In this document: piece after piece, positions 1,844 to 47,365 of the stretch
How the letters are laid out: every line of letters starts with the position of its first letter
Numbering within the stretch: the first letter of the stretch is position 1
Assembly (NCBI GenBank): GCA_905233525.1
Contig: CAJOEW010000009.1
Location: forward strand, 11,898-75,897
Source of the DNA: an uncultured Synergistales bacterium
GTDB lineage: Bacteria; Synergistota; Synergistia; Synergistales; Aminobacteriaceae
Direction of reading: 5' to 3'
Length of the DNA stretch: 64,000 nt
Made by a program: the position numbers and the translations under genes
Notes under the pieces: model-generated
What the model saw: only the letters and a program-made list of their open reading frames with translations
What the model was told of the DNA's origin: nothing
The model's database searches: none

Positions 1844-1990
1844 AAAAATAAGCCTCCTCAAAAAATTTAAGCGTGTAAGAAATTAAAGAATACTCAAAAA
1901 AAACGCTGTCAAGCATAAAACTTAAATGCATTCAGCGTCAAGGCTAATACTCACCAAAATTAAAGCGTTTAAAAATTTTGCGAGGAGTTT

Positions 1991-3093
1991 TTATTTTTTG
2001 AGTCCGATCCTGTATAAAAATTCGATCCATAACATTTTGACCGTACGTTTTAACCAGTCAGGATAAATTTTATTAAGGATCTTTAAAAATATTCTGATTG
2101 TCCAATGCGGTTTGATTGTGATTTTTTGTTCAGGAACGGCGTTGAGCATAATTTTTGCAAGCTCTTCACGAGTCGTATTTTCTCCCCACGCGGAACGCAG
2201 ATAATAATCCCAATAAAAATATTGTGCCGGCATTCCTGTAACGTTCCATAATTTCGGGCGTGCTGCTGTATGAATGATCGTTCCTGTTAATTCTTCGTGC
2301 GTTTTAGGAAGGATTGTCATTTTATTAAATTTGCTGTCTATAAATTTCACGTGATTATAAAACAATGAGTTCAATATGTCTTGATCATTCCATTCGCATA
2401 AATGTATATAGCGCCGATAATATTCAAGTGATCTTTCAAAAAGATTCATATTCTTACGAATCTCATACAAATTCATAAATATCATACCGGCGTTAAAATA
2501 GGTTTTAATGTCAAAATGATTGAGCCTGCATTTTACGCGTTGAAATTTGTACGGCTGTATCTTATTCGAAAGAATGTTATGTATATATTCATCAATGACG
2601 ACTGCTGCATAATAATTTTCAAGCTCGATATTCCATAATTCGCTTATATCTAAATCAACGATCATATCGCAGTCAAGGTGAATAACTTTGTCTTGTTTAA
2701 TACACGCTGGCACTAGTAATCTAAAAATAATTCCGATTGAGACTCTTCCTATGTTTTGAATAATTTCATTCGAGAGCTGTTTTTCGTATGGACTTAGATC
2801 AATAAAATTTACTTCTTGGTTATATTTTTCGGCTGTACGTAAAAATTTTTGCTTGTTATCGTCTGTTAATGTCTCATCGTGCAAAATATGTATTGTTACA
2901 GGTGATTTCGTGTTCTCAAAAATTGATGTCATTACGACTCCGGCGTGCTGCGAATATTTTCCGGTTGGATCATATAATGATAATGCTACATGAATTTTAT
3001 TTTCTTCGTTCTGATTTTGGGCATTATTAAGGCGATGTGCGATGTGCGATGTGCGATGTGCGATGTGCGATTATACTGGACTTCGTCGTTCAT
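1991..3093 (-). pseudogene. family 8 glycosyltransferase (LPS/general-stress GspA-like), interrupted at a 5' heptanucleotide repeat (apparent phase-OFF state)
   Basis: The body (ORF track 1991..2932) carries GT8-like motifs HLDCDMIV (DxD) and FNAGMIFMNL. The same frame continues upstream without a start codon as ...KIHVALSLYDPTGKYSQHAGVV-MTSIF. A strong SD (GGAGG 3101-3105) plus ATG 3093 sits in a different frame, and the two are separated by the 7-nt repeat tract. Confidence 0.75.
3032..3071 (-). repeat. tandem heptanucleotide repeat: GCGATGT x5 plus a partial copy (coding-strand ACATCGC)
   Basis: Read directly from the sequence. There are five perfect 7-nt units at 3032-3066, followed by GCGAT at 3067-3071. 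Confidence 0.97.
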
Positions 3094-3165
3094 GTCAAGA
3101 CCTCCTGAAAATTTATATTACTACCGCAAAATTCTAACATAATTATTTGATTCATTGTACCGCGC

Positions 3166-3200
3166 AAAATAATACCGCCTCTCACAAATGCAAGAGACGG
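3166..3200 (-). terminator. intrinsic terminator downstream of thrB
   Basis: On the minus-strand RNA, CCGUCUCU...AGAGGCGG forms an 8-bp stem (one G-U pair; plus-strand 3175-3200). It is followed by a U-rich run (UAUUAUUUU), directly after the thrB stop. Confidence 0.6.
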
Positions 3201-3215
3201 AAGATTTAATCGTGT

Positions 3216-4139
3216 TTAACTTTTTTCAATCAATGCGCCGTATTTAGGACAGTTCAATACAAAAAAATGCGACGCTGCTTTACCTTCAGTGAAAATTCTG
3301 CACATGGCCTTGGCTAAATTTCCTGCTTTGCCTCTCACAATAGCAATAACTGTAGGACCGGAACCGCTGATCGCTGTAGCAACACAATCCGGACGCGATT
3401 GGATCTCGTTTAAAAATTTTTCGCCTATACCTGCTGGAAATAATTTTGCTCTGTGATTTTGATGTAAGCGATCTTCCATTCCAACGTGAAGCAAATCCCA
3501 ACGTCCCATCGCCCAAGCTGAACACAATATGCTGGCATGACTGACATTAAATACAGCGTCTTTAAACGGCACGCTTTCAGGTAAAATTTTCCGCGCGTCT
3601 TCTGTGTGAACTTCAAAATCCGGCACTGTTGCAATAATATTAAAATCGCTCGGTAATGCTGGCAGTTTAACATAGCGCAATGTCTCACCGTCCCAGCATG
3701 ATACAGTCATACCGCCTAAATAACACGGCACAACATTGTCAGGATGTCCTTCGATTAAAGTCATTACACGTAATAATTCACCTTCAGTTTTTCGAAGGCC
3801 ATGAATTATATTCGCGATCATTACTCCAGCTACAACCGCCGTCGATGAACTGCCTAAGCCGCGATTTAACGGGATTGCATTGCAGCTCTCAAAATCAAAT
3901 CCGGTTTCAGGAACTCCCCAAATTTCGCAGGCTCTTATATAACTTTTGACGATTAAATTTTTTCGAACGTCTTTTAATTCGTTGACACCTTCGCCAATGA
4001 TCGAACACGTAAAATCACCAGCCGGCAATAATTTTTTTATCGTGAATATATTATATAAGCTCAATGCCATGCCTAATGTATCAAATCCTGAACCTAAATT
4101 TGCTGTAGTCGCTGGAATTTTTAATACTAGTTCTGACAT
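3216..4139 (-). CDS. thrB: homoserine kinase
   Basis: The GHMP-kinase motif PLNRGLGSSSTAVVAG and the N-terminal ATTANLGSGFDTLG are present. The gene overlaps the thrC stop by 13 nt. Confidence 0.9.
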   Translation of the reverse strand: MSELVLKIPATTANLGSGFDTLGMALSLYNIFTIKKLLPAGDFTCSIIGEGVNELKDVRKNLIVKSYIRACEIWGVPETGFDFESCNAIPLNRGLGSSSTAVVAGVMIANIIHGLRKTEGELLRVMTLIEGHPDNVVPCYLGGMTVSCWDGETLRYVKLPALPSDFNIIATVPDFEVHTEDARKILPESVPFKDAVFNVSHASILCSAWAMGRWDLLHVGMEDRLHQNHRAKLFPAGIGEKFLNEIQSRPDCVATAISGSGPTVIAIVRGKAGNLAKAMCRIFTEGKAASHFFVLNCPKYGALIEKS

Positions 4140-5170
4140 AGTACTTTCATTAAGGCTTCGGGAGTGTCATCAATTTCGATCGGGCTTCCTACTTGAGTCA
4201 TAGCTGTGTCAGGATCTTTTAAGCCGTTGCCGGTCAAAATCATCGTTACTAAAATATTTTCAGGTAATCTGTTTTCGCGTTTGAGCTTCATTAAACCTGC
4301 TAACGGTGCACAAGACGCAGGCTCAGCAAAAACTCCGCCTTCACTCGCTAATAATTTTTGAGCTTCTAAAATTTCCTGATCAGTCACTGAATTAAATTCG
4401 CCGCCTGATTCTTTTACTGCTGCTTTAGCTAAATGAGCACTCACAGGATTTCCAATTCTGATCGCAGTAGCAATTGTTTCAGGATTCGGACAAGGCTTAT
4501 TTGTTACAAGAGGTGCCGCTCCTTCTGCCTGGAAGCCGTACATTTTAGGAAGTGCTTTTATTTTTCCCATGTCTGCATAAACGTTATAACCTGCCCAATA
4601 TGCGCTTATGTTACCAGCATTTCCAACCGGTATAGCATGAATATCAGGAGCACGCCCTAGAAAATCGCATATCTCCCAAGCTCCTGAACGCTGGCCGATC
4701 AATCTATAAGGATTAACAGAATTTACCATAGCGCAGCCTGTTCTCTCAGCTCCTTCACGCGCAAGCTCTAAAGCTCTGTCAAAATTACCTTTTACAGCGA
4801 TGACCTTTGCTCCGTACATTAAAGCCTGTGCCAATTTTCCAAGAGCAACTTTACCGGCAGGCAATAAAACAAAACACGGTATACCAACTGACGCAGCATA
4901 AGCCGCAGCTGAAGCCGATGTGTTACCAGTTGAAGCACATATTACGGCGCGCTTACCTTCTTCAAGAGCTTTTGCAACAGCTAACACCATTCCGCGATCT
5001 TTAAATGAGCCGGACGGATTACAGCCTTCAAATTTTCCAAATAAACGAATCCCTAAACGCGCTCCAACTCTTGGAAGCTCTATTAACGGCGTTGAGCCTT
5101 CCTCTAAATTTACGCGCGGCGTTTTGTACGTTAACGGTAATAATTTTTCATAATGCCTTAAAATTCCCAT
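4127..5170 (-). CDS. thrC: threonine synthase
   Basis: The PLP-lysine motif NPSGSFKDRG is present. The length of about 347 aa is typical of short-form ThrC, and the gene is operonic with thrB. Confidence 0.9.
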   Translation of the reverse strand: MGILRHYEKLLPLTYKTPRVNLEEGSTPLIELPRVGARLGIRLFGKFEGCNPSGSFKDRGMVLAVAKALEEGKRAVICASTGNTSASAAAYAASVGIPCFVLLPAGKVALGKLAQALMYGAKVIAVKGNFDRALELAREGAERTGCAMVNSVNPYRLIGQRSGAWEICDFLGRAPDIHAIPVGNAGNISAYWAGYNVYADMGKIKALPKMYGFQAEGAAPLVTNKPCPNPETIATAIRIGNPVSAHLAKAAVKESGGEFNSVTDQEILEAQKLLASEGGVFAEPASCAPLAGLMKLKRENRLPENILVTMILTGNGLKDPDTAMTQVGSPIEIDDTPEALMKVLCQN

Positions 5171-5283: not shown

Positions 5284-6774
5284 TCATTCCTCAAAGGCCG
5301 GCTTATTCTGTAAAATTGCGCTGCCGTTCTTTGCAAAAGCTATACTCATGATTCCTATATACTTATCAAAAAATTGTGTAAGCTCCTGCTCAGTCATTTT
5401 GAGGCCAAGGCGGTTTAATACCCTGTTTATAATTGAGAATAGATTCAACGTGCTTAAATAGTTATTCTCAATTTCGTTTATAACGTCCTGCAATACTGAC
5501 TCTGTTTTTAATTCGATATTGCCTGACATGTAAAACTCATCGATGTAAAAAAATTCTATACGGTTATTTTGCAACCGCTGATAATAAGCTTGTGAGCAAT
5601 TATCATATTCAAGCATTACTAAAAATTTTATCTCAGGCGTTAATTCAATCAATGGCCAAAAATCACAATCACTTGAAATTATTACGGCTGAATCTATTGG
5701 CGAACCTTCGTTATTGCATTGCGTGAACTCCCTGTAAAATTTTATAGTCAATGCAACATCTACAGCTGATTTTTCATCTTTGACGCGATCTGTTAAATAA
5801 TATTCGAGCGGTAAATTTTCACTTCGTCTCAACGCACGCCATTGAGTTGACGTATGCTCATCATCAACGAGCAGGACTTTATAAATTTTCTCATTGAGTC
5901 CCTGTTGTTCCAAATGTTTAAATATTCCTATGACTTTACACGGATCGGCATTCTCGCAATCAATAGCTACCAAAATTTTATGAGCATTATTAAAAAATTC
6001 CGTAGGATCATTTAATGCAGCGTCGCCGGCCTCTGTAACTTTGCTCATATCGTAAAATTTATCTCTGTTATGTTCGTAAAGAATAGGCAAAAATTTCGCG
6101 TCATCTCTTAAAATATTTCCGTCACCGTCATCAGGAAGCCAGTTCATATAAGTTTGATACGGGAATAAATCTCGGCATTCTCCATAAATTCTCGCGGCTT
6201 CTTTATTTCCGTCGACAGTGTTGCCTCTTGGAACGAAGAATAAATTTTTTATGTAGTTCCATTTCACCCAGTCAGGAATAAATTTTTGACAGTTCGGAAC
6301 ATGCGGTAATAAATAATTGTGAACGTCAACGATATAATCTTCAAGCTTGCGTCTTGCTCGTACGAACATTATGCCGTCATTTTCAAGAGCCTTTAATGAT
6401 TCTTGCGGTACTAGATCTGGAATTGAGTCAATGTTTTTTATGTCGGAATTCATTTCTGTGAAGATTGCTCTGAAATTTTTTTGCAGCTTAGTTCGTAGAA
6501 TACAAAGATGTCTGACTATGCGTGCCTCTTTATCTTGATTAAGTTCGTCATAAACGCTTCTATAAAATTGAGGATTCATATTTTCAGTTTGGCCTATACC
6601 GAAATATTTTTCATCGATTCCGATTAAATAAGCCACGCGCGAAACAATATCACGTTTAGATTTTGGCGTATCACCTCCCTGACGCAGCATTAAGTCCGGC
6701 AAATTCTCCGAAAAATTTTGCAGCGATGCCCTTTTGTCATCATCTAGCAGGCTGCCTATACTTAGTTCACTCAT
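5284..6774 (-). CDS. NYN/LabA-like (PIN-fold) domain protein with a large unassigned N-terminal region
   Basis: The C-terminal half shows the NYN signature series: ILVAIDCENADP (DxEN), SAVDVALTIKF and AVIISSDCDFWPLIE (SxDxDF). I recognise nothing in the first ~270 aa. The gene is monocistronic and visibly more AT-rich than its neighbours. Confidence 0.55.
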   Translation of the reverse strand: MSELSIGSLLDDDKRASLQNFSENLPDLMLRQGGDTPKSKRDIVSRVAYLIGIDEKYFGIGQTENMNPQFYRSVYDELNQDKEARIVRHLCILRTKLQKNFRAIFTEMNSDIKNIDSIPDLVPQESLKALENDGIMFVRARRKLEDYIVDVHNYLLPHVPNCQKFIPDWVKWNYIKNLFFVPRGNTVDGNKEAARIYGECRDLFPYQTYMNWLPDDGDGNILRDDAKFLPILYEHNRDKFYDMSKVTEAGDAALNDPTEFFNNAHKILVAIDCENADPCKVIGIFKHLEQQGLNEKIYKVLLVDDEHTSTQWRALRRSENLPLEYYLTDRVKDEKSAVDVALTIKFYREFTQCNNEGSPIDSAVIISSDCDFWPLIELTPEIKFLVMLEYDNCSQAYYQRLQNNRIEFFYIDEFYMSGNIELKTESVLQDVINEIENNYLSTLNLFSIINRVLNRLGLKMTEQELTQFFDKYIGIMSIAFAKNGSAILQNKPAFEE

Positions 6775-17026: not shown

Positions 17027-17800
17027 ATGGATTTAACCAGCTTAATAGGATTTTTAGCGACGTGGATTTTGGTTTTAGCTTCGATGGCATCAGGCGGTAA
17101 TTTTGGAGCCTATATTGATATACCTTCCGTTATGATCACGTTGGGCGGAGCTATTGGAGCTACAGTTATTTCGAGTCCGTCTGATAGATTAAAATCAGTC
17201 GGCGGAAGTTTAAGAAGTGTCTTTATAAATCATGAGGCCGATCTTGTCGGAACTGTTCAAATGATCGTAAGCTTCGCAGAAAAAGCAAGGCGTGAAGGTC
17301 TGTTAGCACTTGAAGGCGATCTTGAAAATCTTGACAATGAATTTATGCGTAAAGCTATTCAATTAGTAGTTGACGGCACGGATCCTGAGCTTGTGCGGCA
17401 AATTTTAGAGACTGAAATCAGCGTTTTCGAAGACAGACACAGCGCTAATAAAGCCGTATTTGATACTCTTGCAGAATTTGGGCCTTCATTCGGAATGATA
17501 GGAACATTGATCGGTTTGATAGCAATGCTTGGAAACTTGCAGGACGTTAGCGCGTTGGGACCAGGTATGGCTGTTGCGTTAATTACTACGATGTACGGAT
17601 CAATGCTTGCGAACATGTTTGCGAGTCCTACAGGTAAGAAGTTAGCCGCCCGTTCAGCACAAGAGTCAAAAGCCATGGAACTCATGGTAGAAGGTATATT
17701 AGCTATTCAAGCCGGTGAAAACCCAAGAATCGTTGAAGAGAAATTAAAAGTTTACATGCCTCCTAAAATGCGTGAAGCTTTCAATCAGGAAGGAGCTTAA
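17027..17800 (+). CDS. motA: flagellar motor stator protein MotA
   Basis: This is a 257-aa four-TM protein of the MotA/TolQ/ExbB type. An AGGAGG SD is present, and motB follows. Confidence 0.9.
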   Translation: MDLTSLIGFLATWILVLASMASGGNFGAYIDIPSVMITLGGAIGATVISSPSDRLKSVGGSLRSVFINHEADLVGTVQMIVSFAEKARREGLLALEGDLENLDNEFMRKAIQLVVDGTDPELVRQILETEISVFEDRHSANKAVFDTLAEFGPSFGMIGTLIGLIAMLGNLQDVSALGPGMAVALITTMYGSMLANMFASPTGKKLAARSAQESKAMELMVEGILAIQAGENPRIVEEKLKVYMPPKMREAFNQEGA

Positions 17801-17803
17801 TAA

Positions 17804-18532
17804 ATGGCGCGTCCTAAGAAACCTGAAGAGCCTGGATTATCTGCACCGTTCTATATGGGAACTTACGGCGATATGGTTACGCTTATATTATGTTTTTTCA
17901 TTTTGCTGTTTGCTATGTCGTCAGTTGACAGTCAGAAATTTCAGCAGGCTTTATTATCATTGCGAGGATCGTTAGGCGTTTTAAAAGGCGGTGTCACTGT
18001 CGAAGAAAGCAACGATCCAAATAAAAGCGGTGAAGTTGGAGCAAGTCCGGGAGCGTCGCCAAAAGTTGAAGTTGATACTCGGCATATAGCTTACACGTTA
18101 AACAGTTATTTACGTTCCGAGAATTTGCAAAAAGATATTCAGGTAACAATAAATCAGCGCGGTGTATCAGTTTCAATAGGCGATCAATTTTTATTCCTGC
18201 CTGGCCGTGCTGATCTCAGACCTGAAGGTGAACGCGTGTTATATAAAATTTCTGAAATTACTCGTGATATAGTCCCTGCTGTAGCTGTTGAAGGCCATAC
18301 GGATTCAGGCATTCTCAGCGGAGGAATATATCGCGATAACTGGGGATTATCCTCGATGAGAGCGGCTGCTGTTGCAAGTTACATGGAACATTCAGGCGGA
18401 TATGATCCTGTTAAACTTCAAGCCGTCGGTTTCAGTTCGTCGCAGCCTGTTGTACCAAATGATACGAGCGAACATAGAGCATTAAATAGGCGTGTTGAAA
18501 TAGTGTTTTTATCTCAATATCCTAAGCGTTAG
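17804..18532 (+). CDS. motB: flagellar motor protein MotB (OmpA-like C-terminal domain)
   Basis: It has a single N-terminal TM with the conserved Asp context (YGDMVTLILCFF). The C-terminal OmpA-like region reads GHTDS...NRRVEI. Confidence 0.9.
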   Translation: MARPKKPEEPGLSAPFYMGTYGDMVTLILCFFILLFAMSSVDSQKFQQALLSLRGSLGVLKGGVTVEESNDPNKSGEVGASPGASPKVEVDTRHIAYTLNSYLRSENLQKDIQVTINQRGVSVSIGDQFLFLPGRADLRPEGERVLYKISEITRDIVPAVAVEGHTDSGILSGGIYRDNWGLSSMRAAAVASYMEHSGGYDPVKLQAVGFSSSQPVVPNDTSEHRALNRRVEIVFLSQYPKR

Positions 18533-18569
18533 AATTAAGCATATAAAAAAAGGATGAGCTGATCTTAAA

Positions 18570-19022
18570 ATGAAACGTATTATAATTTTTGCGGTCGTCG
18601 GACTTGTAATGTTCGGCGTAGGTTTTGGAGGCGGTTTATTATTAGGGCGTTCAATGGCACCTTCGGATGAAGCTTCAGGCATAAATAAAAGCGTTCCGAC
18701 ACCTGGCCCTACGGTATCAATCGGAGAATTTACAAGCAATTTGGCAGGCGGAGGCCGTCATGTAATTTCTTTTACGTTATCGCTTGAGCTTATAGAAAAT
18801 GAAGCGGCTGTCGCACTCGTTCAAACTCCTGCATGGCTTGTAAGAATCCGTAACGAAGTTTTTATGACTGCTAAAGATCGAGTATATGACGATCTTACGA
18901 GCGCTGAAGGTACATTACAATTTGCAGCTGATATAAAACGCAATCTCAATTCAATATTACCTGATGTGAACGGCGAGCCTCCAGTCGAACGTGTATATTT
19001 TGAGAATATAATCCTGCAGTAA
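18570..19022 (+). CDS. fliL: flagellar basal body-associated protein FliL
   Basis: This is a 150-aa protein with an N-terminal TM and a FliL-like core (FTSNLAGGGRHVISFTLSLEL). It lies between motB and fliM. Confidence 0.8.
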   Translation: MKRIIIFAVVGLVMFGVGFGGGLLLGRSMAPSDEASGINKSVPTPGPTVSIGEFTSNLAGGGRHVISFTLSLELIENEAAVALVQTPAWLVRIRNEVFMTAKDRVYDDLTSAEGTLQFAADIKRNLNSILPDVNGEPPVERVYFENIILQ

Positions 19023-19052
19023 ATTTTTAAAACGTTAGGTGGTGATTAGATT

Positions 19053-20084
19053 ATGCCTGATATGATGTCTCAGGACGAAATAGACAAGCTCTTAAAAGGA
19101 GTATCATCAGGAAGCGTTGATGTAAGTACTCTTGATATGAATAACGAGTACGAAAAACTCAAGCTTTATGATTTCAAACGTCCTGACAAATTCAGCAAAG
19201 ACCAGTTACGCGCGATTCAAATGATTCATGAAAGTTTTGCCCGTCAGGTTACAACAGTGTTATCGACTTTAATCAGAAGCATGGTATCAGCCGAAGTCGC
19301 AAGCGTTGAGCATTTAGCATACGAAGAATTTGTAAATTACATGGTTCAGCCGACGGTTATAGGCATGATTGAAATGCACCCATTCTCAGGCAGTATGCTT
19401 CTTGAATTAAATCCTAATCTTGCATTTGCAATAATTGATCGTTTACTAGGAGGGCGCGGAACATTTACAGGAGTCGTGCGTGAGCTTACAGATATCGAAA
19501 AAACTGTTATTGAACGCGTCATAATGAGAATACTTGAATTACTTGAAGACAGCTGGAGCACGGTTGTAGATGTCCGATTTAGATTTGAGAGCATGGAAAG
19601 TAATCCGTTCTTCGTTCAGATATGTTCGCCGAATGATATGGTCTTAGTCGTAATCATGCATTTAAGAATCGCTGACGTTGAAGGCATGTTCAGTTTATGT
19701 TTTCCGTATTTTTTAATTGAGCCTATCATGGATAAATTATCGTCTCAACAGTGGTTCGCTTCAACTTCTCATAAGCAGGACGAAGAAGTACAAGGCTTCC
19801 TACATTCTTCGATCAGACAAGTAAAAATGCCTTTAGCGATGGAATTAGGACATACGATTTTAAGCCTCAATGAAGTTTACGCGCTTGAACCTGGCGATGT
19901 CATAAGACTTGATGAAACCAAGGACAGCGATATAGATGTCAGAGTCGGCAATCAAATAAGATTTAAAGCTCGCCCTGGAACTGTAAACGGTCATATGGCT
20001 GTAGAGCTTACGAAAATAGTATCAGAGGACGGAATAGAAATAATACAGGATCAAAAACGGGAGGGAGATGTGAAACATGCCTGA
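19053..20084 (+). CDS. fliM: flagellar motor switch protein FliM
   Basis: The N-terminal CheY-P binding motif MSQDEIDKLL and the LYDFKRPDKFSKDQLR pattern are present. Length is 343 aa. Confidence 0.9.
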   Translation: MPDMMSQDEIDKLLKGVSSGSVDVSTLDMNNEYEKLKLYDFKRPDKFSKDQLRAIQMIHESFARQVTTVLSTLIRSMVSAEVASVEHLAYEEFVNYMVQPTVIGMIEMHPFSGSMLLELNPNLAFAIIDRLLGGRGTFTGVVRELTDIEKTVIERVIMRILELLEDSWSTVVDVRFRFESMESNPFFVQICSPNDMVLVVIMHLRIADVEGMFSLCFPYFLIEPIMDKLSSQQWFASTSHKQDEEVQGFLHSSIRQVKMPLAMELGHTILSLNEVYALEPGDVIRLDETKDSDIDVRVGNQIRFKARPGTVNGHMAVELTKIVSEDGIEIIQDQKREGDVKHA

Positions 20085-21183
20085 TATTTTAAGTCCTGAT
20101 GAGATAAACGCATTACTTGCAGGCGGAGGCGAATTTAACGAGGACGAAATTTCACCAGAAGACGCAGAACAACTTGATAAAGTAGCTCAGGCTTTTGCAG
20201 ACGCTGAAAAAAGTGTAATCAATATGCTTGCAGGAAAAGACGTTAACGCCGCTGTAGGAACGCCCGAAGTATTAGTACAGGACGATTTCAGAAAAAAGTA
20301 TACTGAACTGCCTTTTCTGTTCTCAAATACTTTCGGAGGACTTGACGATCAGCCGATGTCGCTCGTTGTTGATCAAAAAGGTGCTTTAAGGCTTGCTGAT
20401 TTCATGATGGGAGGAACAGGCCAATCAGTCCCGGAACCTAGCGATTTATACTGGAACGCGGCGCAGGAAGGTTTAAGCCAGATCGTAGGAGCAGCTTTTA
20501 CAACTTTGAGCGGACATTTGGCAGGACGCAGATTGATGCCTGAAAATACTACATCAGCCTTAACTGAAGAGAGTTGGCTGCCGTTGACTCTTGAGCCTTC
20601 AGATACAAAGATTTGGGCGAGTCCTGTTGATATAAATATTACCGGTGTAGAGCCTTTCAGAATATGGACGTGTATGAGGCTTGAAACGGCGTTAGATATT
20701 TCCGGAATGATACGCGATATTCTTGATGGAGTACCGCCCAGACCTACAAGTGTAGATGTACCGGCACAGCCAAAACCTTCAGGAGGTGGAAATAAAGTGA
20801 ATGGAAGTGCAAGACCGGCAGGAAGACCAGTTGATGTAAGGCCAGCAGAATTTCAACCTATAGGAGGCGGCGGCGGATCAGGCGGAACAAGTCCAATAGA
20901 TTTAATCGCTGATATTCCTGTACGTGTTACTGTTGAATTAGGCAAGGCGCGTAAGTCCGTGTCTGAAATTTTGGCATTGACAAGCGGAGCTGTTATTGAG
21001 CTTGATAAAATGGCCGGCGAACCTGTTGACATTCTCGTAAACGGAAAATTGATAGCTCATGGTGAAGTCGTCGTCATTGATGAAAATTTCGGCGTAAGAT
21101 TATTTTTTCAAAATTTAAACGAATATATAATTTTAAATGGGGGAATAATACAAGATGGGCAAAAAAGTTTTGATAGTCGATGA
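20077..21183 (+). CDS. fliY: flagellar motor switch phosphatase FliY (CheC-like N-terminus plus FliN domain)
   Basis: Contains the N-terminal LSPDEINALL peptide and a Gly/Pro-rich linker. The C-terminal SpoA/FliN domain reads IPVRVTVELGKARKSVSEILALTSGAVIELDK...VNGKLIAHGEVVVIDENFGVR. Confidence 0.85.
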   Translation: MPDILSPDEINALLAGGGEFNEDEISPEDAEQLDKVAQAFADAEKSVINMLAGKDVNAAVGTPEVLVQDDFRKKYTELPFLFSNTFGGLDDQPMSLVVDQKGALRLADFMMGGTGQSVPEPSDLYWNAAQEGLSQIVGAAFTTLSGHLAGRRLMPENTTSALTEESWLPLTLEPSDTKIWASPVDINITGVEPFRIWTCMRLETALDISGMIRDILDGVPPRPTSVDVPAQPKPSGGGNKVNGSARPAGRPVDVRPAEFQPIGGGGGSGGTSPIDLIADIPVRVTVELGKARKSVSEILALTSGAVIELDKMAGEPVDILVNGKLIAHGEVVVIDENFGVRLFFQNLNEYIILNGGIIQDGQKSFDSR

Positions 21184-21517
21184 CGCAGCTTTTATGCGCA
21201 TGATGTTAAAAGATATTCTTACAAAAAACGATTTTGAGGTCGTTGCTGAAGCTGAAAATGGTAAAGCAGGCGTGGCAGCGTTCCAAAAATATAAGCCTGA
21301 TATCATCACAATGGATATTACTATGCCTGAAATGAATGGTATCGACGCAACAAAAGCTATTAAAGCTCTCGATCCAAATGTAAAAGTCGTAATGGTTTCT
21401 GCTATGGGTCAGCAGCCTATGGTAATTGAAGCAATTCAAGCAGGAGCAAATGATTTTATCGTTAAACCGTTCCAGCCTGAAAGAGTCGTTGAAGCTATCA
21501 CAAAGGTATTATCATAA
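21155..21517 (+). CDS. cheY: chemotaxis response regulator CheY
   Basis: This is a 120-aa single REC domain with VLIVDDAAFMR, DITMPEMNG, and KPF near the end. Confidence 0.9.
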   Translation: MGKKVLIVDDAAFMRMMLKDILTKNDFEVVAEAENGKAGVAAFQKYKPDIITMDITMPEMNGIDATKAIKALDPNVKVVMVSAMGQQPMVIEAIQAGANDFIVKPFQPERVVEAITKVLS

Positions 21518-21546
21518 ATATAGCAAGTTCAGATTTAACAGGATAT

Positions 21547-21810
21547 TTGATCCGTGTAATATTTATTTTACTTGTTATGTCGATCAGCGCAGTTATTTTC
21601 GTGCGTTACGCAAAGAGGCATAATAAAATATCAAAGAATACGGACGTTGAAGTTTTAGCCTCCCTGCGTTTATCCGGCAGGGATATTTTTTACGTAATTA
21701 AATGCGGTTCACAAGTTATAGCGTTCGTTTCAGGAAGTTCAGGCGCTTGCAAATTAGGTGATTGGAATTATGAAGACTGGATTAAAAACGGCACTGATAA
21801 TAATTTTTAG
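21547..21810 (+). CDS. fliO: flagellar biosynthesis protein FliO/FliZ
   Basis: This is a small single-TM protein located between cheY and fliP. It has a TTG start and overlaps the fliP start. Confidence 0.55.
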   Translation: MIRVIFILLVMSISAVIFVRYAKRHNKISKNTDVEVLASLRLSGRDIFYVIKCGSQVIAFVSGSSGACKLGDWNYEDWIKNGTDNNF

Positions 21811-22582
21811 TTTAATAATTTTCTTGCTGCCTATGTCTGTTCATGCTGCAGAAGCTCCTGTAAATCCTTCGCCTCGTATGCCTATGTATATGCCTTTTCC
21901 TTTACCGTCTGTTCAATTTGGTGTATCAGCTGCTGACAGTCCGAGAGATATAGCTTTAACGTTGCAGGTATTGGCACTGATGACGATTTTAAGTCTTGTG
22001 CCTGCGATATTGTTAATGCTTACGAGCTTCACAAGAATTATTATCGTATTAGGATTCGTTCAGCGTGCAATAGGTTTACAGCAGTCGCCGCCTCAACAGG
22101 TTGTAGCAGGATTGTCATTATTTTTAACGCTGTTCACAATGTATCCAACTTGGAATAACGTTTATCAAAACGGTTTAGCACCATATATCGACGGCAGAAT
22201 TACAGCTCAACAAGCCTGGGTAAATTCGATCGCACCGGTTCGTCAGTTCATGTTCAGATATACAAGACAGGAAGAATTGTCGTTAATAGTTTCTATGTCG
22301 GAAATGGAGCGCCCAAATTCTCCGAATGATGTTCCGACAAGAGTTTTAATACCTGCGTTTATGATGAGCGAATTAAAAACAGCGTTTCAAATGGGTGTAG
22401 TTATTTATATTCCGTTTATGGTTGTTGATATGGTCGTGTCAAGTGTTTTATTAGCGATGGGTATGATGATGCTTCCGCCAATGATGATCTCGCTGCCGTT
22501 TAAAATTTTATTATTCGTAATGGCTGACGGCTGGAATCTCGTTGTAGTGAGCATATTAAAAAGTTTCACGAACGTTCCGTAA
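21770..22582 (+). CDS. fliP: flagellar type III export protein FliP
   Basis: A signal-like N-terminus (MKTGLKTALIIIFSLIIFLLPMSVHA) and the conserved FliP core (LTSFTRIIIVLGFVQRAIG) are present. I chose ATG 21770 because AGGTGA lies about 8 nt upstream. Confidence 0.9.
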   Translation: MKTGLKTALIIIFSLIIFLLPMSVHAAEAPVNPSPRMPMYMPFPLPSVQFGVSAADSPRDIALTLQVLALMTILSLVPAILLMLTSFTRIIIVLGFVQRAIGLQQSPPQQVVAGLSLFLTLFTMYPTWNNVYQNGLAPYIDGRITAQQAWVNSIAPVRQFMFRYTRQEELSLIVSMSEMERPNSPNDVPTRVLIPAFMMSELKTAFQMGVVIYIPFMVVDMVVSSVLLAMGMMMLPPMMISLPFKILLFVMADGWNLVVVSILKSFTNVP

Positions 22583-22621
22583 TTTTTCAAGCTTTCAATT
22601 TTCAGTTAGGAGTGTTTTTGA

Positions 22622-22897
22622 ATGAATGAAACTGTTTTAAGCCTGTATGATATTTTGAGCGGAGCTGTCTGGACGATGTTAAGCGTGTCTCTTCCGATTT
22701 TGTTAGTTGCTATGATCGTAGGATTGTTAATCGGAATTTTACAGACAGCAACATCAATTCAAGAGCAGACGTTAATATTTATTCCGAAAATTTTAGCTGT
22801 GTTCATGTGCATAATAATTTTATCGCCATGGATCGGTCAGCGTATGCTGGTAATGACTCGCGAAATTTTAGGACAGCTCGAAAGATTTATACAGTAG
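22622..22897 (+). CDS. fliQ: flagellar type III export protein FliQ
   Basis: This is a 91-aa two-TM protein with the motif LLIGILQTATSIQEQTL. Confidence 0.9.
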   Translation: MNETVLSLYDILSGAVWTMLSVSLPILLVAMIVGLLIGILQTATSIQEQTLIFIPKILAVFMCIIILSPWIGQRMLVMTREILGQLERFIQ

Positions 22898-22926
22898 GTT
22901 AAAATTTTATAGCTCGTTATCAAAAA

Positions 22927-23712
22927 ATGAACGGCCTGCAAATTCCAACACAACTGTTAATAATTTATTTGCTTGTGCATTTGCGGTACATTGGTCTAAT
23001 TTTCAGTTCGCCGGTTTTTACAGCAGCAATGGCTCCTGCACCTTTCAGATATATTTTTGCGGTCATGCTCACGGCTTCGTCTATAGCTGTAATAAATACG
23101 GATATGATCCCTACAATTTATCTTGACGGCGTTATGACATTAGGAGCGCTCGCTGTTCGTGAATTGTTTATCGGATTGGCGTTAGGTTTTATTTCAGCGC
23201 TGCCTTTATATGCTTTACAGGTTGCAGGAGAATTAACAGGAACGGCTACAGGTTTTTCAATGGCTCAAGTTATGGATCCAAGCTCGCAGACTCAAACGTC
23301 TATATTTGGACAATTATATTTTTTAATGGCAATCTGGATGTATTTTCATTGGAACGGACATTTAATAATGGTGCGTGCTCTTGTTGAAAGTCTTAAGCTA
23401 GTGAAGCTTGGCCAAATAAATTTTTTACCGTCAGGCGATCTCTCAATAGGAAAATGGTTACAAGAATTATTTATACTCGCTGTCAGAATGACTATACCAT
23501 TTTATTGCGCGCTCGTATTATCGGATATAGGCTTAGGATTTTTGGCACGTACAGTCCCTCAAATGAATATATTCGTTGTTGGATTGCCTGTTAAAGTTAT
23601 GCTGGGCTTTATGGTTTTAGCTGTAGCATTACCGCTTGCAATGGATTTCATATTCACAAAATTTGAACATTGGATAGAATTTGCTTTGGCCGTATTATTC
23701 AACTGGAAATAA
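22927..23712 (+). CDS. fliR: flagellar type III export protein FliR
   Basis: This is a 261-aa polytopic membrane protein located after fliQ. Confidence 0.85.
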   Translation: MNGLQIPTQLLIIYLLVHLRYIGLIFSSPVFTAAMAPAPFRYIFAVMLTASSIAVINTDMIPTIYLDGVMTLGALAVRELFIGLALGFISALPLYALQVAGELTGTATGFSMAQVMDPSSQTQTSIFGQLYFLMAIWMYFHWNGHLIMVRALVESLKLVKLGQINFLPSGDLSIGKWLQELFILAVRMTIPFYCALVLSDIGLGFLARTVPQMNIFVVGLPVKVMLGFMVLAVALPLAMDFIFTKFEHWIEFALAVLFNWK

Positions 23713-23733
23713 TTTTTATAGGAGGTTTCATAA

Positions 23734-24669
23734 ATGTTAAAGCTGTTTAAAAAATTTCGTACGCTTTTCAAATTGTTGCGCATGAAAGATTTTGACGGGA
23801 TCAAAGTAAGAATTTTAAACATGATTACTTTTGGTCTTTACGGGAGAATTTATAATGGTGGCATTGATTCGCCTGCTCGTCTTCAGTGTTATTACAAGAT
23901 TGAAAAAGAGTTCTCGCCGTTTGTTGAAGCATACGTAAAAACACCTATGGGGGGGGGGGAGCGATCCAAACACGATAATATAATTTGGTGGTGCTGGCTT
24001 CAAGGAATTGATAACGCTCCTGAAATTTGTAAGGCTTGTTTACACTCATGGCAAAAATTTTATCCTGATAAGAAAATTATTACCGTCGACGAAAAAAATA
24101 TTTTTGATTACATCTCATTACCTGGCTACATCATTGATAAATACAATAAAGGCATTTTCTCACCAACTCATTACAGTGATATCGTCCGCATAGAATTGTT
24201 ATATACTCACGGCGGCGTATGGACTGACTCCACGATTTTATGCACAGGACGCAGACAGGAATATGAACGCGTTTTAAATTTGCCTCTGTTCGTTTTCAAA
24301 AGAAGTAACAGCGCGTGGTGGAGATGGGCAAGTTGGTTCATGGTATCTGATAAACAAAATCCGATTATAGAATTAACACGCGAATTATTTTTTGAGTACT
24401 GGAAGAAATATGATTACACTATCGATTATTTTGTAGTGATAATGTTCTTGACAATGGCTGCACAAAAATATAAAGACATTTGGGCGCAAGTTCCTTATTA
24501 TCATGCTGACGTGCCGTTGTTGCTTGAGAAAAGTTTGTATAACGATTACTCGGACGACATCATGAACGAATTTAAATCAGCCAGCGATTTCCATAAGCTC
24601 ACGTATAAATTACAGCGCGAGCCGTCTCAAAAAAGTTTTTACAGGCACATAATCAACACAGAAAAATAA
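23734..24669 (+). CDS. capsular-polysaccharide-synthesis type glycosyltransferase (Caps_synth/Gly_transf_sug-like), contains a G11 tract
   Basis: Contains IIWWCWLQG...P.ICKACL.SW and SDIVRIELLYTHGGVWTDSTI, which resembles the sDllRy.lLy.yGGiY.D pattern. A GGAGG SD lies 8 nt before the ATG. The gene starts 22 nt after the fliR stop with no terminator in between. Confidence 0.6.
   Translation: MLKLFKKFRTLFKLLRMKDFDGIKVRILNMITFGLYGRIYNGGIDSPARLQCYYKIEKEFSPFVEAYVKTPMGGGERSKHDNIIWWCWLQGIDNAPEICKACLHSWQKFYPDKKIITVDEKNIFDYISLPGYIIDKYNKGIFSPTHYSDIVRIELLYTHGGVWTDSTILCTGRRQEYERVLNLPLFVFKRSNSAWWRWASWFMVSDKQNPIIELTRELFFEYWKKYDYTIDYFVVIMFLTMAAQKYKDIWAQVPYYHADVPLLLEKSLYNDYSDDIMNEFKSASDFHKLTYKLQREPSQKSFYRHIINTEK
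23949..23959 (+). repeat. homopolymeric G11 tract inside the coding sequence (codons ATG GGG GGG GGG GAG)
   Basis: Read directly from the sequence. It is the only long G/C homopolymer I saw in the window. Confidence 0.97.
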
Positions 24670-24688
24670 CCGCAAAGTATTAAAGCTG

Positions 24689-24717
24689 TTAAAAATGCAG
24701 AGCAAAACTTGTATAAT
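24689..24717 (+). promoter_or_regulatory. candidate sigma-70 promoter for the TctC-like gene
   Basis: TTAAAA (24689-24694), a 17-nt spacer, then TATAAT (24712-24717), located about 38 nt upstream of GTG 24755. Confidence 0.35.
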
Positions 24718-24754
24718 CAAAGCGTTTTCAGATTATTCAGGAGGTTTTTTTATC

Positions 24755-25711
24755 GTGAAGAAATTTTTATCGTTAGCTTTGGTTATGATTTTTGCTTTGC
24801 CTGCTTTTTCGGCTGAATATCCTGAGCATGATATTGACGGCGTAATTCAATGGGGAGTCGGCGGCGTGACAGATGTTTTAACTCGCGCTTTGTGCCATAA
24901 AGCTGAAACCTATTTGAATAAAAATATTAAGCTCGAAAATATTCCTGGTGATACCGGCGTTGTAGGATTTCAAGAAGTTTATAACAAACCTGCTGACGGT
25001 TATACACTGCTGCTCGGTGCTGAAAATCCCACGCTGTACAGAGCTTTGAAATTATGTGAACAGACTTATAACGATTTCGAATGCATTTATTTAATCGGTG
25101 ATGTTACTGCCGGCGTAATGGTGAGACCGGATTCAAAATATAAATCATTCAAAGAAATAATTAAAGACGCTCTCGCTAATCCAGGTCAATTGAAATACGC
25201 TACAACAGGCCGCGGCAGTCTTCATTGGATTATGGCAGCGTTCATAAAAGATATCACAGGCGCAACATTTGATTTAAAAGAATATGACAGTAACGGAACA
25301 GCTAAAGAAGCAGTGATCAACGGTGAATGCGATTTTACAGTATGTTTATTACAACAGGCTGCAGATGATATAAGATTAGGACGCGCTAATTTTCTTTGTG
25401 TGTTCTCGTTAGATGTACCTGATTCATTACATGGAGTTCCGGCTGTAATTGATGAATACCCTGAATTTACAAAATATTTTCCATGGGGATCGTTTTACGG
25501 CGTTTTCGTAAAGAAAGGCACTGATCAAAAGATTGTCCAAAAATTAAAAGACGCGTTTATAAAAGCAGGGAACGATCACGATTTTCAAAAACTGCTGATT
25601 GATTACAACGTTAATTTTTTAGGTTATTCCGGTGAAGAAGCTGAACGCTATATATCAAACTGGAAGGGCAATACGATCGACGCATTATTAACAAGCGGAG
25701 CAATCGAATAA
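24755..25711 (+). CDS. tripartite tricarboxylate transporter substrate-binding protein (TctC/Bug family), orphan
   Basis: Begins with the signal peptide VKKFLSLALVMIFALPAFSA, followed by a Bug-family-like core. I chose GTG 24755 because AGGAGG lies 10 nt upstream. No tctA or tctB is adjacent. Confidence 0.6.
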   Translation: MKKFLSLALVMIFALPAFSAEYPEHDIDGVIQWGVGGVTDVLTRALCHKAETYLNKNIKLENIPGDTGVVGFQEVYNKPADGYTLLLGAENPTLYRALKLCEQTYNDFECIYLIGDVTAGVMVRPDSKYKSFKEIIKDALANPGQLKYATTGRGSLHWIMAAFIKDITGATFDLKEYDSNGTAKEAVINGECDFTVCLLQQAADDIRLGRANFLCVFSLDVPDSLHGVPAVIDEYPEFTKYFPWGSFYGVFVKKGTDQKIVQKLKDAFIKAGNDHDFQKLLIDYNVNFLGYSGEEAERYISNWKGNTIDALLTSGAIE

Positions 25712-25721
25712 AAATTTTCAA

Positions 25722-25757
25722 ACATTCCTGTAAAATTCCGCAGGGATGTTTTTTTTT
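25722..25757 (+). terminator. intrinsic terminator after the TctC-like gene
   Basis: ACATTCCTG...CAGGGATGT forms a 9-bp stem (one G-U pair) with a 10-nt loop, followed by T9. Confidence 0.65.
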
Positions 25758-25775
25758 GAGGAGGCTGATTTTTTC

Positions 25776-27719
25776 ATGACAGGAAATTTTTTTCTATTAG
25801 CTCTCGTTTTATGGCCTATGCTCGGCGCGGTGATTAGTTTTATTTCCGGCATGTTCAATAAAAATTTACGCGATTATGTTGCTGATTTAGTGTGTGTTAT
25901 AGAATTGGCCGGCGTTGTTGCATGTTATAAATTTATTGGCTCAGAATTGCATATACCAGACATTTGCGGAACAGGTTTAAATTTTAAATTAGACGGCTTC
26001 AGATTTATATATGCCGTAATAATTGCTTTCATGTGGACGGCGACGACAATATTTTCACGCGAATATCTTGAGCACCATAAAAAACGCAATAGATATTATT
26101 TTTATATCTTGATGACATTCGGATCGATCATGGGCGTTTTCTTATCAAGCGATTTATTTACGACGTTTATATTTTTTGAGATGATGTCATTATTCTCGTA
26201 TGTTATGGTCGTTCAGGATGAAACACCGGAAGCATTAAGAGCCGCTCAAACTTATTTAGCGATCGCAATTATAGGAGGGCTTGCAACTTTAACAGGCTTG
26301 ATATTTTTATATTCACAAACAGGAACTCTTGAAATAAATAAATTATTAAATCCTGCCGTGAAAAATAAAAAGCTCTTATACATTTCAGGCGCGTTAATTT
26401 TTTCAGGTTTTGCTGCAAAAGCTGCGATATTCCCTGCTCACATATGGCTGCCAACGGCTCACACTGCTGCGCCGGCTCCGTCAAGTGCTTTGTTATCAGG
26501 TTTGCTCACAAAATCCGGATTGTTCGGAGTTTTAATATTAAGCTGTAATATTTTCGCAGGCGATAAAATTTGGGCGATGATGCTTTTAATTTTGGCGTTA
26601 ATAACAATGACGTTAGGCGCTGTTCTGGCTGTATTCTCCGTTAATATAAAACGTACGTTAGCCTGCTCTTCAATGTCGCAAATAGGATTTATATTAACAG
26701 GCGTTTCAATGCAGTGTTTTTTGGGACATGATAATGATTTAGCTGTACGAGGAACGATTTTATATATGGTCGGTCATTCGCTGATCAAGCTTGTATTATT
26801 TTTATGCGCCGGTGTAGTTCATATGAATACGCACAAATTAAATTTAAATGATATTCGTGGATTCGGACGCGGTAAAAAAATTTTCATGTTCGCATTTTTA
26901 ATGGGCGGATTAGGTTTAGCAGGCGTGCCGTTGTTAAATGGCTATTTAGGTAAAACGCTCATTCATGAAAGCATTTTAGAATATATCCATGAATTATCAA
27001 ACACTCCAGGCGCTTCGACAAGTTTATTTAAATTTGCAGAATGGTTATTTTTAATTTCAGGCGGCTTGACTGTTTCATATGTCTTAAAATTATTCGCTGT
27101 TCTTTTCATAGCTGAACCTTCTGAAAATCTGCACACGAAAGAAAAATATTTATCGCGCGTAAATTCGATTGTGCTTGTTATTTCCGCGTCAGCATTACCG
27201 ATAATTGGACTCATGCCGTATAAAATTGCTGATGTAATATCTTTCATGGGCGCGCAATTCATGAACGGTTCTGAACATCATCACGCAGTTAATTATTTCT
27301 CGCTCGAAAATCTTGAAGGCGCGTTAATCTCATTGGGAATCGGTGCTGTTATTTATTTATACGTCGTCAAAAAATTCTTCATGGACTCTTATAAAAATTA
27401 TGAGTGCGTAAATTTATGGCCGGCAAAACTCGATATTGAGAATTTAATTTTCAGGCCGGTCATCGCGAATATATTACCGTTTATAGGAGCGCTGTTTGCA
27501 AAATTAGTTGACTTGATCACCGCCGGCGAATTGTCTGTGATTTTAAATCGAGCGTCAAAAATAAAACTAATCAGAGCGCCTGAAGATAAAGAGTTCGGCT
27601 TATACGTTAATGAACCTGAACGAGCTACAGCAGAAATATTATTACCGTCAAGTATGGATTACAGCTTCATGGCCTATTCTGCAGGATTGTTATTTATTAT
27701 AATTTTAATGTTAGTTTGA
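25776..27719 (+). CDS. proton-conducting membrane transporter subunit (NuoL/MnhA/complex I subunit 5 family), stand-alone
   Basis: This is a polytopic protein with the PF00361-like core FIFFEMMSLFSYVMV...AAKAAIFPAHIWLPTAHTAAPAPSSALLSG. I chose ATG 25776 because GAGGAGG lies 11 nt upstream. Confidence 0.7.
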   Translation: MTGNFFLLALVLWPMLGAVISFISGMFNKNLRDYVADLVCVIELAGVVACYKFIGSELHIPDICGTGLNFKLDGFRFIYAVIIAFMWTATTIFSREYLEHHKKRNRYYFYILMTFGSIMGVFLSSDLFTTFIFFEMMSLFSYVMVVQDETPEALRAAQTYLAIAIIGGLATLTGLIFLYSQTGTLEINKLLNPAVKNKKLLYISGALIFSGFAAKAAIFPAHIWLPTAHTAAPAPSSALLSGLLTKSGLFGVLILSCNIFAGDKIWAMMLLILALITMTLGAVLAVFSVNIKRTLACSSMSQIGFILTGVSMQCFLGHDNDLAVRGTILYMVGHSLIKLVLFLCAGVVHMNTHKLNLNDIRGFGRGKKIFMFAFLMGGLGLAGVPLLNGYLGKTLIHESILEYIHELSNTPGASTSLFKFAEWLFLISGGLTVSYVLKLFAVLFIAEPSENLHTKEKYLSRVNSIVLVISASALPIIGLMPYKIADVISFMGAQFMNGSEHHHAVNYFSLENLEGALISLGIGAVIYLYVVKKFFMDSYKNYECVNLWPAKLDIENLIFRPVIANILPFIGALFAKLVDLITAGELSVILNRASKIKLIRAPEDKEFGLYVNEPERATAEILLPSSMDYSFMAYSAGLLFIIILMLV

Positions 27720-27730
27720 TTTTGAAATGT

Positions 27731-27763
27731 ACTCCCTTCAAAAAATCGGAGGGAGTTTTTTTT
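27731..27763 (+). terminator. intrinsic terminator between convergent genes
   Basis: ACTCCCTTC-loop-GGAGGGAGT forms a 9-bp stem, followed by T8. Confidence 0.65.
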
Positions 27764-46605: not shown

Positions 46606-47365
46606 TTGCCAGCACGTGTAATAGTAATAACATCAGGCAAAGGCGGAGTCGGTAAGACAACATCAACAGCTAATATCGCAGCAGCTTTAGCCAAATTCGG
46701 AAAAAAAGTAGTAGCAGTTGACGCGGACGTAGGATTAAGAAATCTTGACGTTATCATGGGACTTGAAAACAGAGTCGTATTTAATTTTATTGACGTTATC
46801 GAACAGACCTGCAAATTAAATCAAGCACTCGTAAAAGATAAACGCGTTCCAGGATTATATTTACTGCCGGCTGCTCAAACAAGAACAAAAGACGCTGTTA
46901 ACCCTGAACAAATGATAGCGTTATGTGAAGAATTAAAACCTGAGTTTGATTTTATTTTGCTTGATTGTCCTGCAGGAATTGAAGGAGGTTTTAAAAATGC
47001 TGCTGCCGGTGCTGAAGAAGCTCTAGTTGTAACAACGCCGGAAATACCTGCAGTTAGAGACGCTGACAGAATAATCGGAATGCTCGAATCAATGGGAAAA
47101 TCTCCTATCAGGCTAATAATAAACCGCTTACGCCCTAACATGGTTCAGGACGGAGATATGTTGGCTAAAGATGATATTCTTGACGTGCTTTCAATTGATT
47201 TAATCGGTGTAGTGCCTGAAGATGAAAGCGTTACACGCTTATTTAAATATAGCTGAAAGGATTTTGGGCAATGATGTTCCGTTAATGGATCTTGAAAGTT
47301 ATACATCACGAGGAATATTAAGCTGGATCAAAAGGCTGTTCACACGTAGAGCGAGGCAGCGTTAG
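46606..47365 (+). pseudogene. minD: septum site-determining ATPase MinD, disrupted by an internal deletion and frameshift
   Basis: The frame with the deviant Walker A motif (SGKGGVGKTT) ends prematurely at 47256 (...GVVPEDESVTRLFKYS*). The +1 frame (47222-47365) encodes ...AYLNIAERILGNDVPLMDLESYTSRGILSWIKRLF..., the canonical MinD C-terminus. That frame ends just before the minE SD. Confidence 0.75.

Follow-up and report, generated by a model that had tools for sequence, protein, structure and literature searches.

What is understood of phase variation by simple repeats comes almost entirely from a small number of pathogens. The lgt-type transferases of Neisseria and Haemophilus are single-sugar decorators of the surface glycolipid, and the switches of the lipooligosaccharide (LOS) genes, poly-G in lgtA, lgtC and lgtD and a tetranucleotide in lgtC/lic2A, place a 5'-proximal coding repeat in a transferase of the retaining GT-A type. 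In Campylobacter jejuni, intragenic G runs of at least 8 are found in genes for surface-glycan enzymes at the capsule, LOS and flagellin-glycan loci (Cj1295, wlaN and cgtA), and passages of PMC8355987 and PMC8437040 describe the poly-G/C contingency mechanism. A 64,000 nucleotide (nt) stretch of DNA from an uncultured Synergistales bacterium (GenBank assembly GCA_905233525.1, contig CAJOEW010000009.1, positions 11,898 to 75,897), here called the window and used for all numbering below, was found to carry a homopolymer of 11 G (G11) within a glycosyltransferase gene. The sequences of the gene and its homologues suggest that this run is very probably a hypermutable contingency locus, namely an on/off switch of the glycosyltransferase operated by slipped-strand mispairing.

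The locus resembles the C. jejuni genes in that a gain or loss of one G shifts the frame and truncates the product, the tract length varies, and several repeat-bearing glycan genes occur per lineage. It differs in the host phylum, Synergistota, represented by uncultured gut and rumen commensals and a Fretibacterium metagenome-assembled genome (MAG), and in the enzyme, which is PF05704 / GT32-like. Moreover, the Synergistota tract is conserved at one loop over a deep clade, whereas the C. jejuni tracts are compared among strains of a species. The Neisseria and Haemophilus switches share the GT-A transferase and the position of the repeat, the fold matches of the window protein include LgtC (1g9r), and a GT8 gene with a 7 nt repeat elsewhere in the window resembles the lgtC style. 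However, the window protein has only ~10% sequence identity to LgtC and belongs to a different CAZy-type family (GT32-like and not GT8), and the LgtC-bearing organisms are pathogens, which the window organism is not known to be.

The protein families PF05704 and PF04488 found in the window protein are also the pair listed, in the part of PMC10327509 consulted, for the predicted LOS outer-core transferases GtrOC27 and GtrOC33 of Acinetobacter baumannii, all within the GT-A clan CL0110. The genes of the latter belong to loci devoted to polysaccharides, and that part of the paper mentions no homopolymer switch in them, whereas the window gene is solitary and carries a conserved poly-G tract. A full-text literature search returned no paper joining Synergistetes, Synergistaceae or Fretibacterium with phase variation. 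The mechanism is known, and the novelty lies in the lineage and in how deeply a single tract has been conserved at a single loop of this enzyme family.

Results

An in-frame G11 tract in a glycosyltransferase gene

The homopolymer occupies positions 23949–23959 (+ strand), as read directly from the sequence, and is preceded by an ATG at 23947–23949. It lies inside the open reading frame (ORF) 23734–24669 (+), where positions 23944–23964 read cct ATG GGG GGG GGG GAG cga, such that the tract encodes Gly73–Gly75 and the first base of Glu76 and leaves the gene in frame (ON). In the window, with a GC content of 38.9%, this is the sole homopolymer of G or C of 6 or more; the remaining longer G runs comprise eight of G4 and one of G5, and the longest C runs are six of C4. 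Base composition or a first-order model predicts 0.0005–0.002 G/C runs of at least 11 in 64 kb. The tract is therefore an in-frame G/C homopolymer that exceeds ~8 and stands far above the composition-based expectation.

Editing of the tract in silico gave products of 310–312 amino acids (aa) for G8, G11 and G14, while G9, G10, G12 and G13 led to a stop at 80–83 aa, so that a change of one repeat unit in either direction shifts the frame and abolishes the product. The G10 variant ends in ...MGGGSDPNTII* (82 aa) and the G12 variant in ...MGGGGAIQTR* (81 aa). These data bear out the initial annotation of the sequence, in which the in-frame G11 tract, truncation of both slippage variants near residue 80 and the absence of a comparable G/C homopolymer in the AT-rich sequence had been proposed; the predicted peptides were identical to those obtained, and the next longest run in 64 kb is of 5.

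Tract length and frame in relatives

A protein search of a 5.8-billion-protein collection yielded 61 homologues. Many of the closest are only 206–240 aa long and cover 63–77% of the query, because their genes are split at the tract, as seen in the DNA (loci L001 and L002) of homologue P0002 (57% identity), in which a G8 run at the homologous codon position divides the gene into ORFs of 70 aa and 240 aa in two samples. Loci were gathered from genome, metagenome and assembly collections, and the 75–90 nt before the IWWxWLQG motif were scanned for runs. The tract in relatives is always 8–12 codons before the IWWxWLQG strand. Its length over 13 genes was 7 and 8 G (two genes each), 10 G (two genes), 11 G (four genes), and 13, 14 and 15 G (one gene each), seven of the genes being OFF and six ON.

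The ON state with G11 was found in the window and in L003, which is of the same species and 99.95% identical, as well as in L004, in L009 (goat Synergistaceae), and in L166 and L167. L169 is ON with G10, and L165 is in frame at its G13 tract. The OFF state was found in L001 and L002 (G8), where G9 would restore the frame, in L007 (= L087; G7), which belongs to the Fretibacterium MAG, in L088 (G8), in L005 and L006 (GGGTG7), in L015 (G14), also from goat Synergistaceae, in L170 and L171 (G10), and in the second of two paralogues in L172 (G15). L170 and L171 correspond to the Synergistaceae MAG protein MBQ7543454.1, and their MEGAHIT and Logan assemblies agree. In L008, from red-deer Synergistales, a scaffold gap ends in the tract and the length is unresolved.

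When the OFF genes were viewed in three frames, a single break was seen, located at the tract, with homologous N-terminal and C-terminal ORFs open on either side, and in each OFF gene worked out one G more or fewer mends the frame. The state also differs between near-identical alleles: L005 and L165 share 96.5–98.5% DNA identity and read GGGTG7 and G13, respectively, while L169 and L168 (96.2% DNA identity) read G10 and the interrupted tract GGGGAAAGTGG, the latter being locked ON. Intact copies lacking the homopolymer were limited, among the Synergistota loci, to two, L168 and the first of the tandem paralogues in L172. Variation in length is thus present among homologues and near-identical alleles; in the window's own species only G11 was found (two assemblies). 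The range of 7–15 G in relatives, with both ON and OFF states, strongly supports the phase variation put forward in the initial annotation.

The ATG just ahead of the run might have served OFF cells as an internal start for a truncated, active enzyme. This was rejected, as no Shine-Dalgarno sequence precedes it and the homologues in L004, L007 and L009 lack a start codon at that place. Many database entries of this glycosyltransferase family begin at MWLQG or MGG.

Some features of the gathered loci are recorded separately. L172 contains two tandem Caps_synth paralogues between speE and hisS (1763–3624), the first encoding 297 aa without a tract and the second being split by G15. L165 carries an insertion of ~87 nt in the N-terminal coding part (284–370), which the 97%-identical L005 lacks. 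The direct repeat CTCTCTCCG flanks this insertion, and a small mobile element, a duplication and an error of assembly are all possible origins.

Phylogeny and codon usage at the tract

For the maximum-likelihood tree only the C-terminal domain was used, which leaves the tract columns out. The 13 tract carriers and L168 formed a single clade (Shimodaira-Hasegawa-like approximate likelihood ratio test, SH-aLRT, 100), and its named members are all Synergistota. Presence of the tract required three changes on the tree, a number as low being reached in none of 500 shuffles. Scanning of the stretch before the motif disclosed no G run in homologues from Treponema, Prevotella, Clostridia, Streptococcus and others, and among the tree homologues outside the carrier clade, with the exception of L067 and L116, no run of 6 or more G was present in the 75 nt before the motif. 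L067 and L116 form a separate pair, in which that stretch holds a shorter run, and account for the third change. In Selenomonas L067 the run is G7 (5070–5076), and in L116 it is G9, ~60 nt before the motif at 2216; as they constitute a small clade apart in GC-rich DNA, these were not counted as the same tract. A Selenomonadaceae homologue of the same family, L017, has G11 (4949–4959) at a different site, ~50 nt ahead of where the match begins. The runs in L017, L067 and L116 are possibly poly-G switches that arose separately in Selenomonadaceae of the rumen or in their relatives.

GGG is the rarest glycine codon in the window genes, accounting for 36 of 1113 (3.2%), and the tract contributes three of these 36. 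Were Gly-Gly-Gly the only requirement, the probability of three consecutive GGG would be 2.6e-5. Because GGG is so rare, a need for glycine at the protein level would not yield a G homopolymer, and a requirement for a glycine loop would have used GGA, GGC or GGT. The flanks of the run vary among homologues (ATG-G11-AG, CA-G11-AC, CC-G11-CA and others) while the run itself persists, and it has been kept through divergence down to ~41–57% protein identity. Since genera ranging in GC content from 35% to 54% keep the tract at one loop, selection appears to act on mutability itself. In the window, GGG codons and G/C runs in general are strongly avoided, as would be expected if runs prone to slippage were selected against wherever they are not part of a switch.

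Family and predicted fold of the glycosyltransferase

The gene (23734–24669, +) encodes a protein of 311 aa. The assignment of the initial annotation to a glycosyltransferase family was upheld by a hidden Markov model search, in which residues 52–306 matched Caps_synth (PF05704) with 235.1 bits against a cut-off of 24.5 (E = 1.3e-69), and Gly_transf_sug (PF04488) was matched with 32.4 bits against a cut-off of 23 (E = 1.5e-7), both above the curated cut-off. No NCBIfam model matches the protein.

A model computed with AlphaFold2 (AF2) from an alignment of 45 homologues had a mean predicted local distance difference test (pLDDT) value of 91.7. Foldseek searches of the PDB returned YeGT (8ovt, 1.7e-7), SetA, Och1 (9n3s, GT32), glycogenin and LgtC (GT8) with probability 1.00, and a sequence-profile search of the PDB pointed weakly to the same GT-A group. 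The template modelling (TM) scores for the Foldseek matches were only 0.35–0.42, such that no close structure appears to have been solved. Model and matches together predict a GT-A fold of the retaining type with a nucleotide-sugar binding core. In the 45 homologues the block HYSDIVRxxLLxxHGGxWxDST is conserved, with R152, G160, G161, W163 and D165 invariant and D149 nearly so; at the position of the canonical DXD metal/nucleotide motif the block reads D-S-T, not D-x-D.

In the AF2 model an N-terminal segment of three helices (residues 1–69) is joined to the catalytic domain via the loop encoded by the tract, the glycines 73–75 lying between the helix 47–69 and the strand 83–87 (IIWWC). As this is the first β strand of the catalytic domain, the OFF frame is predicted to remove that domain entirely. 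The location in a surface loop also suggests that in-frame gains or losses of glycine would be tolerated, only the length of the loop being altered.

Position behind the flagellar genes

The gene follows a flagellar cluster with the order motA-motB-fliL-fliM-fliY/N-cheY-(small fliO-like ORF)-fliP-fliQ-fliR. The last of these, fliR (PF01311, 22927–23712 including the stop, +), is separated by 21 nt from the glycosyltransferase ATG at 23734 on the same strand, and a Shine-Dalgarno sequence GGAGG (23721–23725, +) is found 8 nt before this ATG, in agreement with the initial annotation. The latter had also excluded a terminator between the two genes. This part stood, as a consensus scan found no terminator-like hairpin between fliR and 25720 and folding of two junctions disclosed nothing terminator-like, but a promoter-like site (TTCACA-16-TAGAAT, 10/12, consensus match only) was detected in the 3' end of fliR (23653–23680, +). 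Read-through from the flagellar operon is therefore plausible, and the promoter-like site suggests that the glycosyltransferase may also be transcribed on its own. No sigma-28-type promoter pattern was found near the gene, and a search for RNA runs containing this part of the window returned none.

Downstream lies a gene for a TctC-family binding protein (24757–25711, +), identified by sequence and Pfam match. Its probable start is the GTG at 24757, which stands behind AGGAGG and gives a signal-peptide-like N terminus, while the longest ORF starts at 24695. The consensus scan placed a promoter-like site before this gene (24689–24717), a terminator-like hairpin after it (25720–25751), and a further terminator-like site after the antiporter-like gene that follows (27731–27756). 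With no terminator between the glycosyltransferase and TctC, the OFF frame could exert polarity on the latter. Across 17027–27719 the flagellar cluster ends at fliR without flhB or flhA and is succeeded by the transferase, the TctC-type binding protein and a single Proton_antipo_M subunit.

The adjacency to fliR is the same in L003 and L164, which are further samples of the window's species. A tblastn search with FliP, FliQ, FliR and FliM over the loci then gathered found flagellar genes only in L003, and L164, gathered afterwards, has fliR upstream as well. In other species the gene lies between speE and hisS beside EpsG genes (L005, L166, L169, L170 and L172) or, in L001 and L004, next to unrelated housekeeping genes. 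The window ORFs scanned comprised no Maf, Pse/Leg (nonulosonic acid) or flagellin genes; they included dxs, guaA, guaB, recJ, relA, mreBC, PBP2, minCD, rodA, RNase G and glgA, together with genes for a GT8 protein, a GT2 protein and an α-2-macroglobulin. Among the loci searched, linkage to fliPQR is hence confined to the window, L003 and L164, and the flagellar glycosylation advanced in the initial annotation is not supported, given the location of the gene in relatives and the lack of Maf or nonulosonic acid genes among the ORFs scanned. The position behind the flagellar genes looks incidental, even though it may couple expression to flagellar transcription, or let the OFF frame affect the TctC and antiporter-like genes.

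In higher-GC Synergistaceae a palindrome, TCCCCC-(~15 nt)-GGGGGGA, is conserved on both sides of the gene. It occurs at 1405–1440 and 2350–2385 in L005 and just upstream of the gene in L006, L165, L009, L015, L088 and L166–L170, and these palindromes may be terminators that make the gene monocistronic, or a repeated extragenic element. In the window, a MinD-like ORF of 216 aa (46606–47256) has Pfam CbiA/ParA matches over residues 4–212.

Other repeat-bearing genes

Five copies of GCGATGT are present at 3033–3067 of the window, just upstream of the GT8 glycosyltransferase ORF (Glyco_transf_8, 2e-31; 1991–2932, − strand). In L170, a C11 run (5440–5450) splits a gene of the EpsG family into ORFs of 120 aa and 246 aa and encodes PPP where the intact orthologue in L166 reads APSP (gctcccagtcct). 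This run is a candidate for a second poly-G/C switch at the Synergistaceae locus speE-GT-hisS-EpsG. On a Synergistaceae MAG contig, L026, a G12 run (2923–2934) was noted ~2.2 kb downstream of a partial match to the transferase.

Discussion

The features of the G11 run argue for a slippage-operated switch of the glycosyltransferase. Slipped-strand mispairing during replication would alter the number of G; with G11, as with G8 or G14, the full 311 aa enzyme would be made, and the window allele is accordingly read as ON, while with G10 or G12 the ribosome would halt near residue 81, before the first catalytic strand, and no enzyme would result. The switch seems to have been inherited across the Synergistota branch of the gene family and kept at the DNA level, rather than invented in the genome of the window. 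The most likely role of the enzyme is the addition of one sugar to a polysaccharide of the cell surface, which may be the lipopolysaccharide (LPS) or LOS core or O-chain, the capsule or an exopolysaccharide (EPS); such a product is likely because the family is of the capsule/LOS type, EpsG genes are neighbours in higher-GC Synergistaceae, and the EpsG gene of L170 is split by C11. A population would then be a mixture of cells that bear this sugar and cells that lack it, a form of bet-hedging against phages or the immune defences of the host. We infer high-rate, reversible switching and heterogeneity within populations of the window's species, as well as this acceptor and selective agent, from the comparison of sequences.

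Several points weigh against this interpretation. The window's own species displays no variation in tract length, both resolved assemblies having G11, and among the Logan contigs of three DNA runs (one study, 3–6x) none extends across 23842–23970; these contigs were aligned at 95% and 80% likeness, and at 80% only homologues from other organisms reached the IWW block. The consensus lengths G13–G15 come from low-coverage Illumina assemblies and may be off by one, while the OFF calls at G7, G8 and G10 are safer, three of them being replicated in independent assemblies. Transcriptional slippage on G11 could blur the ON and OFF states. Lastly, the OFF homologues might conceivably be pseudogenes of recent origin, but seven genes each broken only once, all at the same place, speak against this.

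The possibility that the gene family is decaying, the OFF homologues being dead and the tract a mutational weak spot, was judged highly improbable. It could draw on the seven of ~13 tract genes that are out of frame and on the extra insertion of ~87 nt in the N-terminal coding part of L165, but the OFF genes examined keep both halves open and conserved, with the tract as their only break, the tract itself survives to ~41–57% protein identity, and the two copies without it, L168 and the first L172 paralogue, are intact; an unselected homopolymer in a genome of 38–54% GC would, besides, be expected to be interrupted quickly. Quite improbable, too, is that no switching takes place, the run being either an unchanging poly-glycine linker or an error of sequencing or assembly, for instance the poly-G artefact of two-colour chemistry. 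The uniform G11 of the window's species would accord with this, as would the frequent breaks of assemblies near the tract (L008, L164 and the Logan contigs X1 and X2). The run is, however, internal and in frame, and its flanks are coding and match the homologues. A run is present at the same codon position in 13 independent genes, whose run lengths differ by numbers that are not multiples of three, and it persists while the flanks differ; in the window genes GGG also makes up only a very small share of the glycine codons. The breaks are not specific to the tract, since N10 joins occur elsewhere in the same assembly series (L003 ~314–366), and at a depth of 3–6x, with joins of N10 and junk sequence at other places, they were likewise set aside as weak evidence of heterogeneity. 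In L164, the third assembly of the species, positions 23873–23965 of the window are replaced by N10 and 98 unrelated bases (L164 1008–1115), and in L003 a join of N10 and unrelated sequence is found at 314–366, corresponding to ~21101 of the window. Scaffolds of the GLEN20-2 assembly series contain N10 joins with 40–100 nt of unrelated sequence, which ought not to be taken for biological variants.

It is also conceivable, though unlikely, that the transferase belongs to the flagellar export operon in function and modifies flagellin or another flagellar component, giving phase-variable flagellar glycosylation. The gene shares the strand of fliR across the gap of 21 nt, nothing terminator-like intervenes before 25720–25751, the arrangement is identical in L003 and L164 of the same species, and part of PMC3068675 describes poly-G genes of C. 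jejuni that modify the flagellin glycan. Against this, the fliPQR neighbours are confined to one species among the homologue loci, the copies of other species lie beside EpsG genes between speE and hisS or beside housekeeping genes, Maf, Pse/Leg and flagellin genes are missing from the window ORFs scanned, the gene could have transcription of its own from the promoter-like site within the end of fliR, and the family is of the capsule/LOS type, as indicated by the Pfam pair shared with GtrOC27 and GtrOC33 in the part of PMC10327509 consulted.

A wider and rather unlikely arrangement may be envisaged in which gut, rumen and oral Synergistota possess a surface-glycan 'phasome' made of the poly-G glycosyltransferase, the poly-C EpsG and the GT8 gene with the 7 nt repeat. 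In the window's species the transferase would be wired to the end of the motA-fliR operon, so that the variable sugar would be made only together with flagella; this sugar might be attached to a component of the flagellum or of a sheath, or the OFF frame might be polar on the TctC and antiporter-like genes.

Should the G11 run act as the proposed switch of the glycosyltransferase, the same device that serves the pathogens would be present in Synergistota, poorly cultured commensals of the gut, rumen and mouth. The 'frameshifted' or 'truncated' copies of this gene in metagenome-assembled sequences would then be switch states, not errors or pseudogenes, and their recognition would allow better annotation, provide a strain-level population marker and give a handle on the pressure that phages and hosts exert on Synergistota surfaces.

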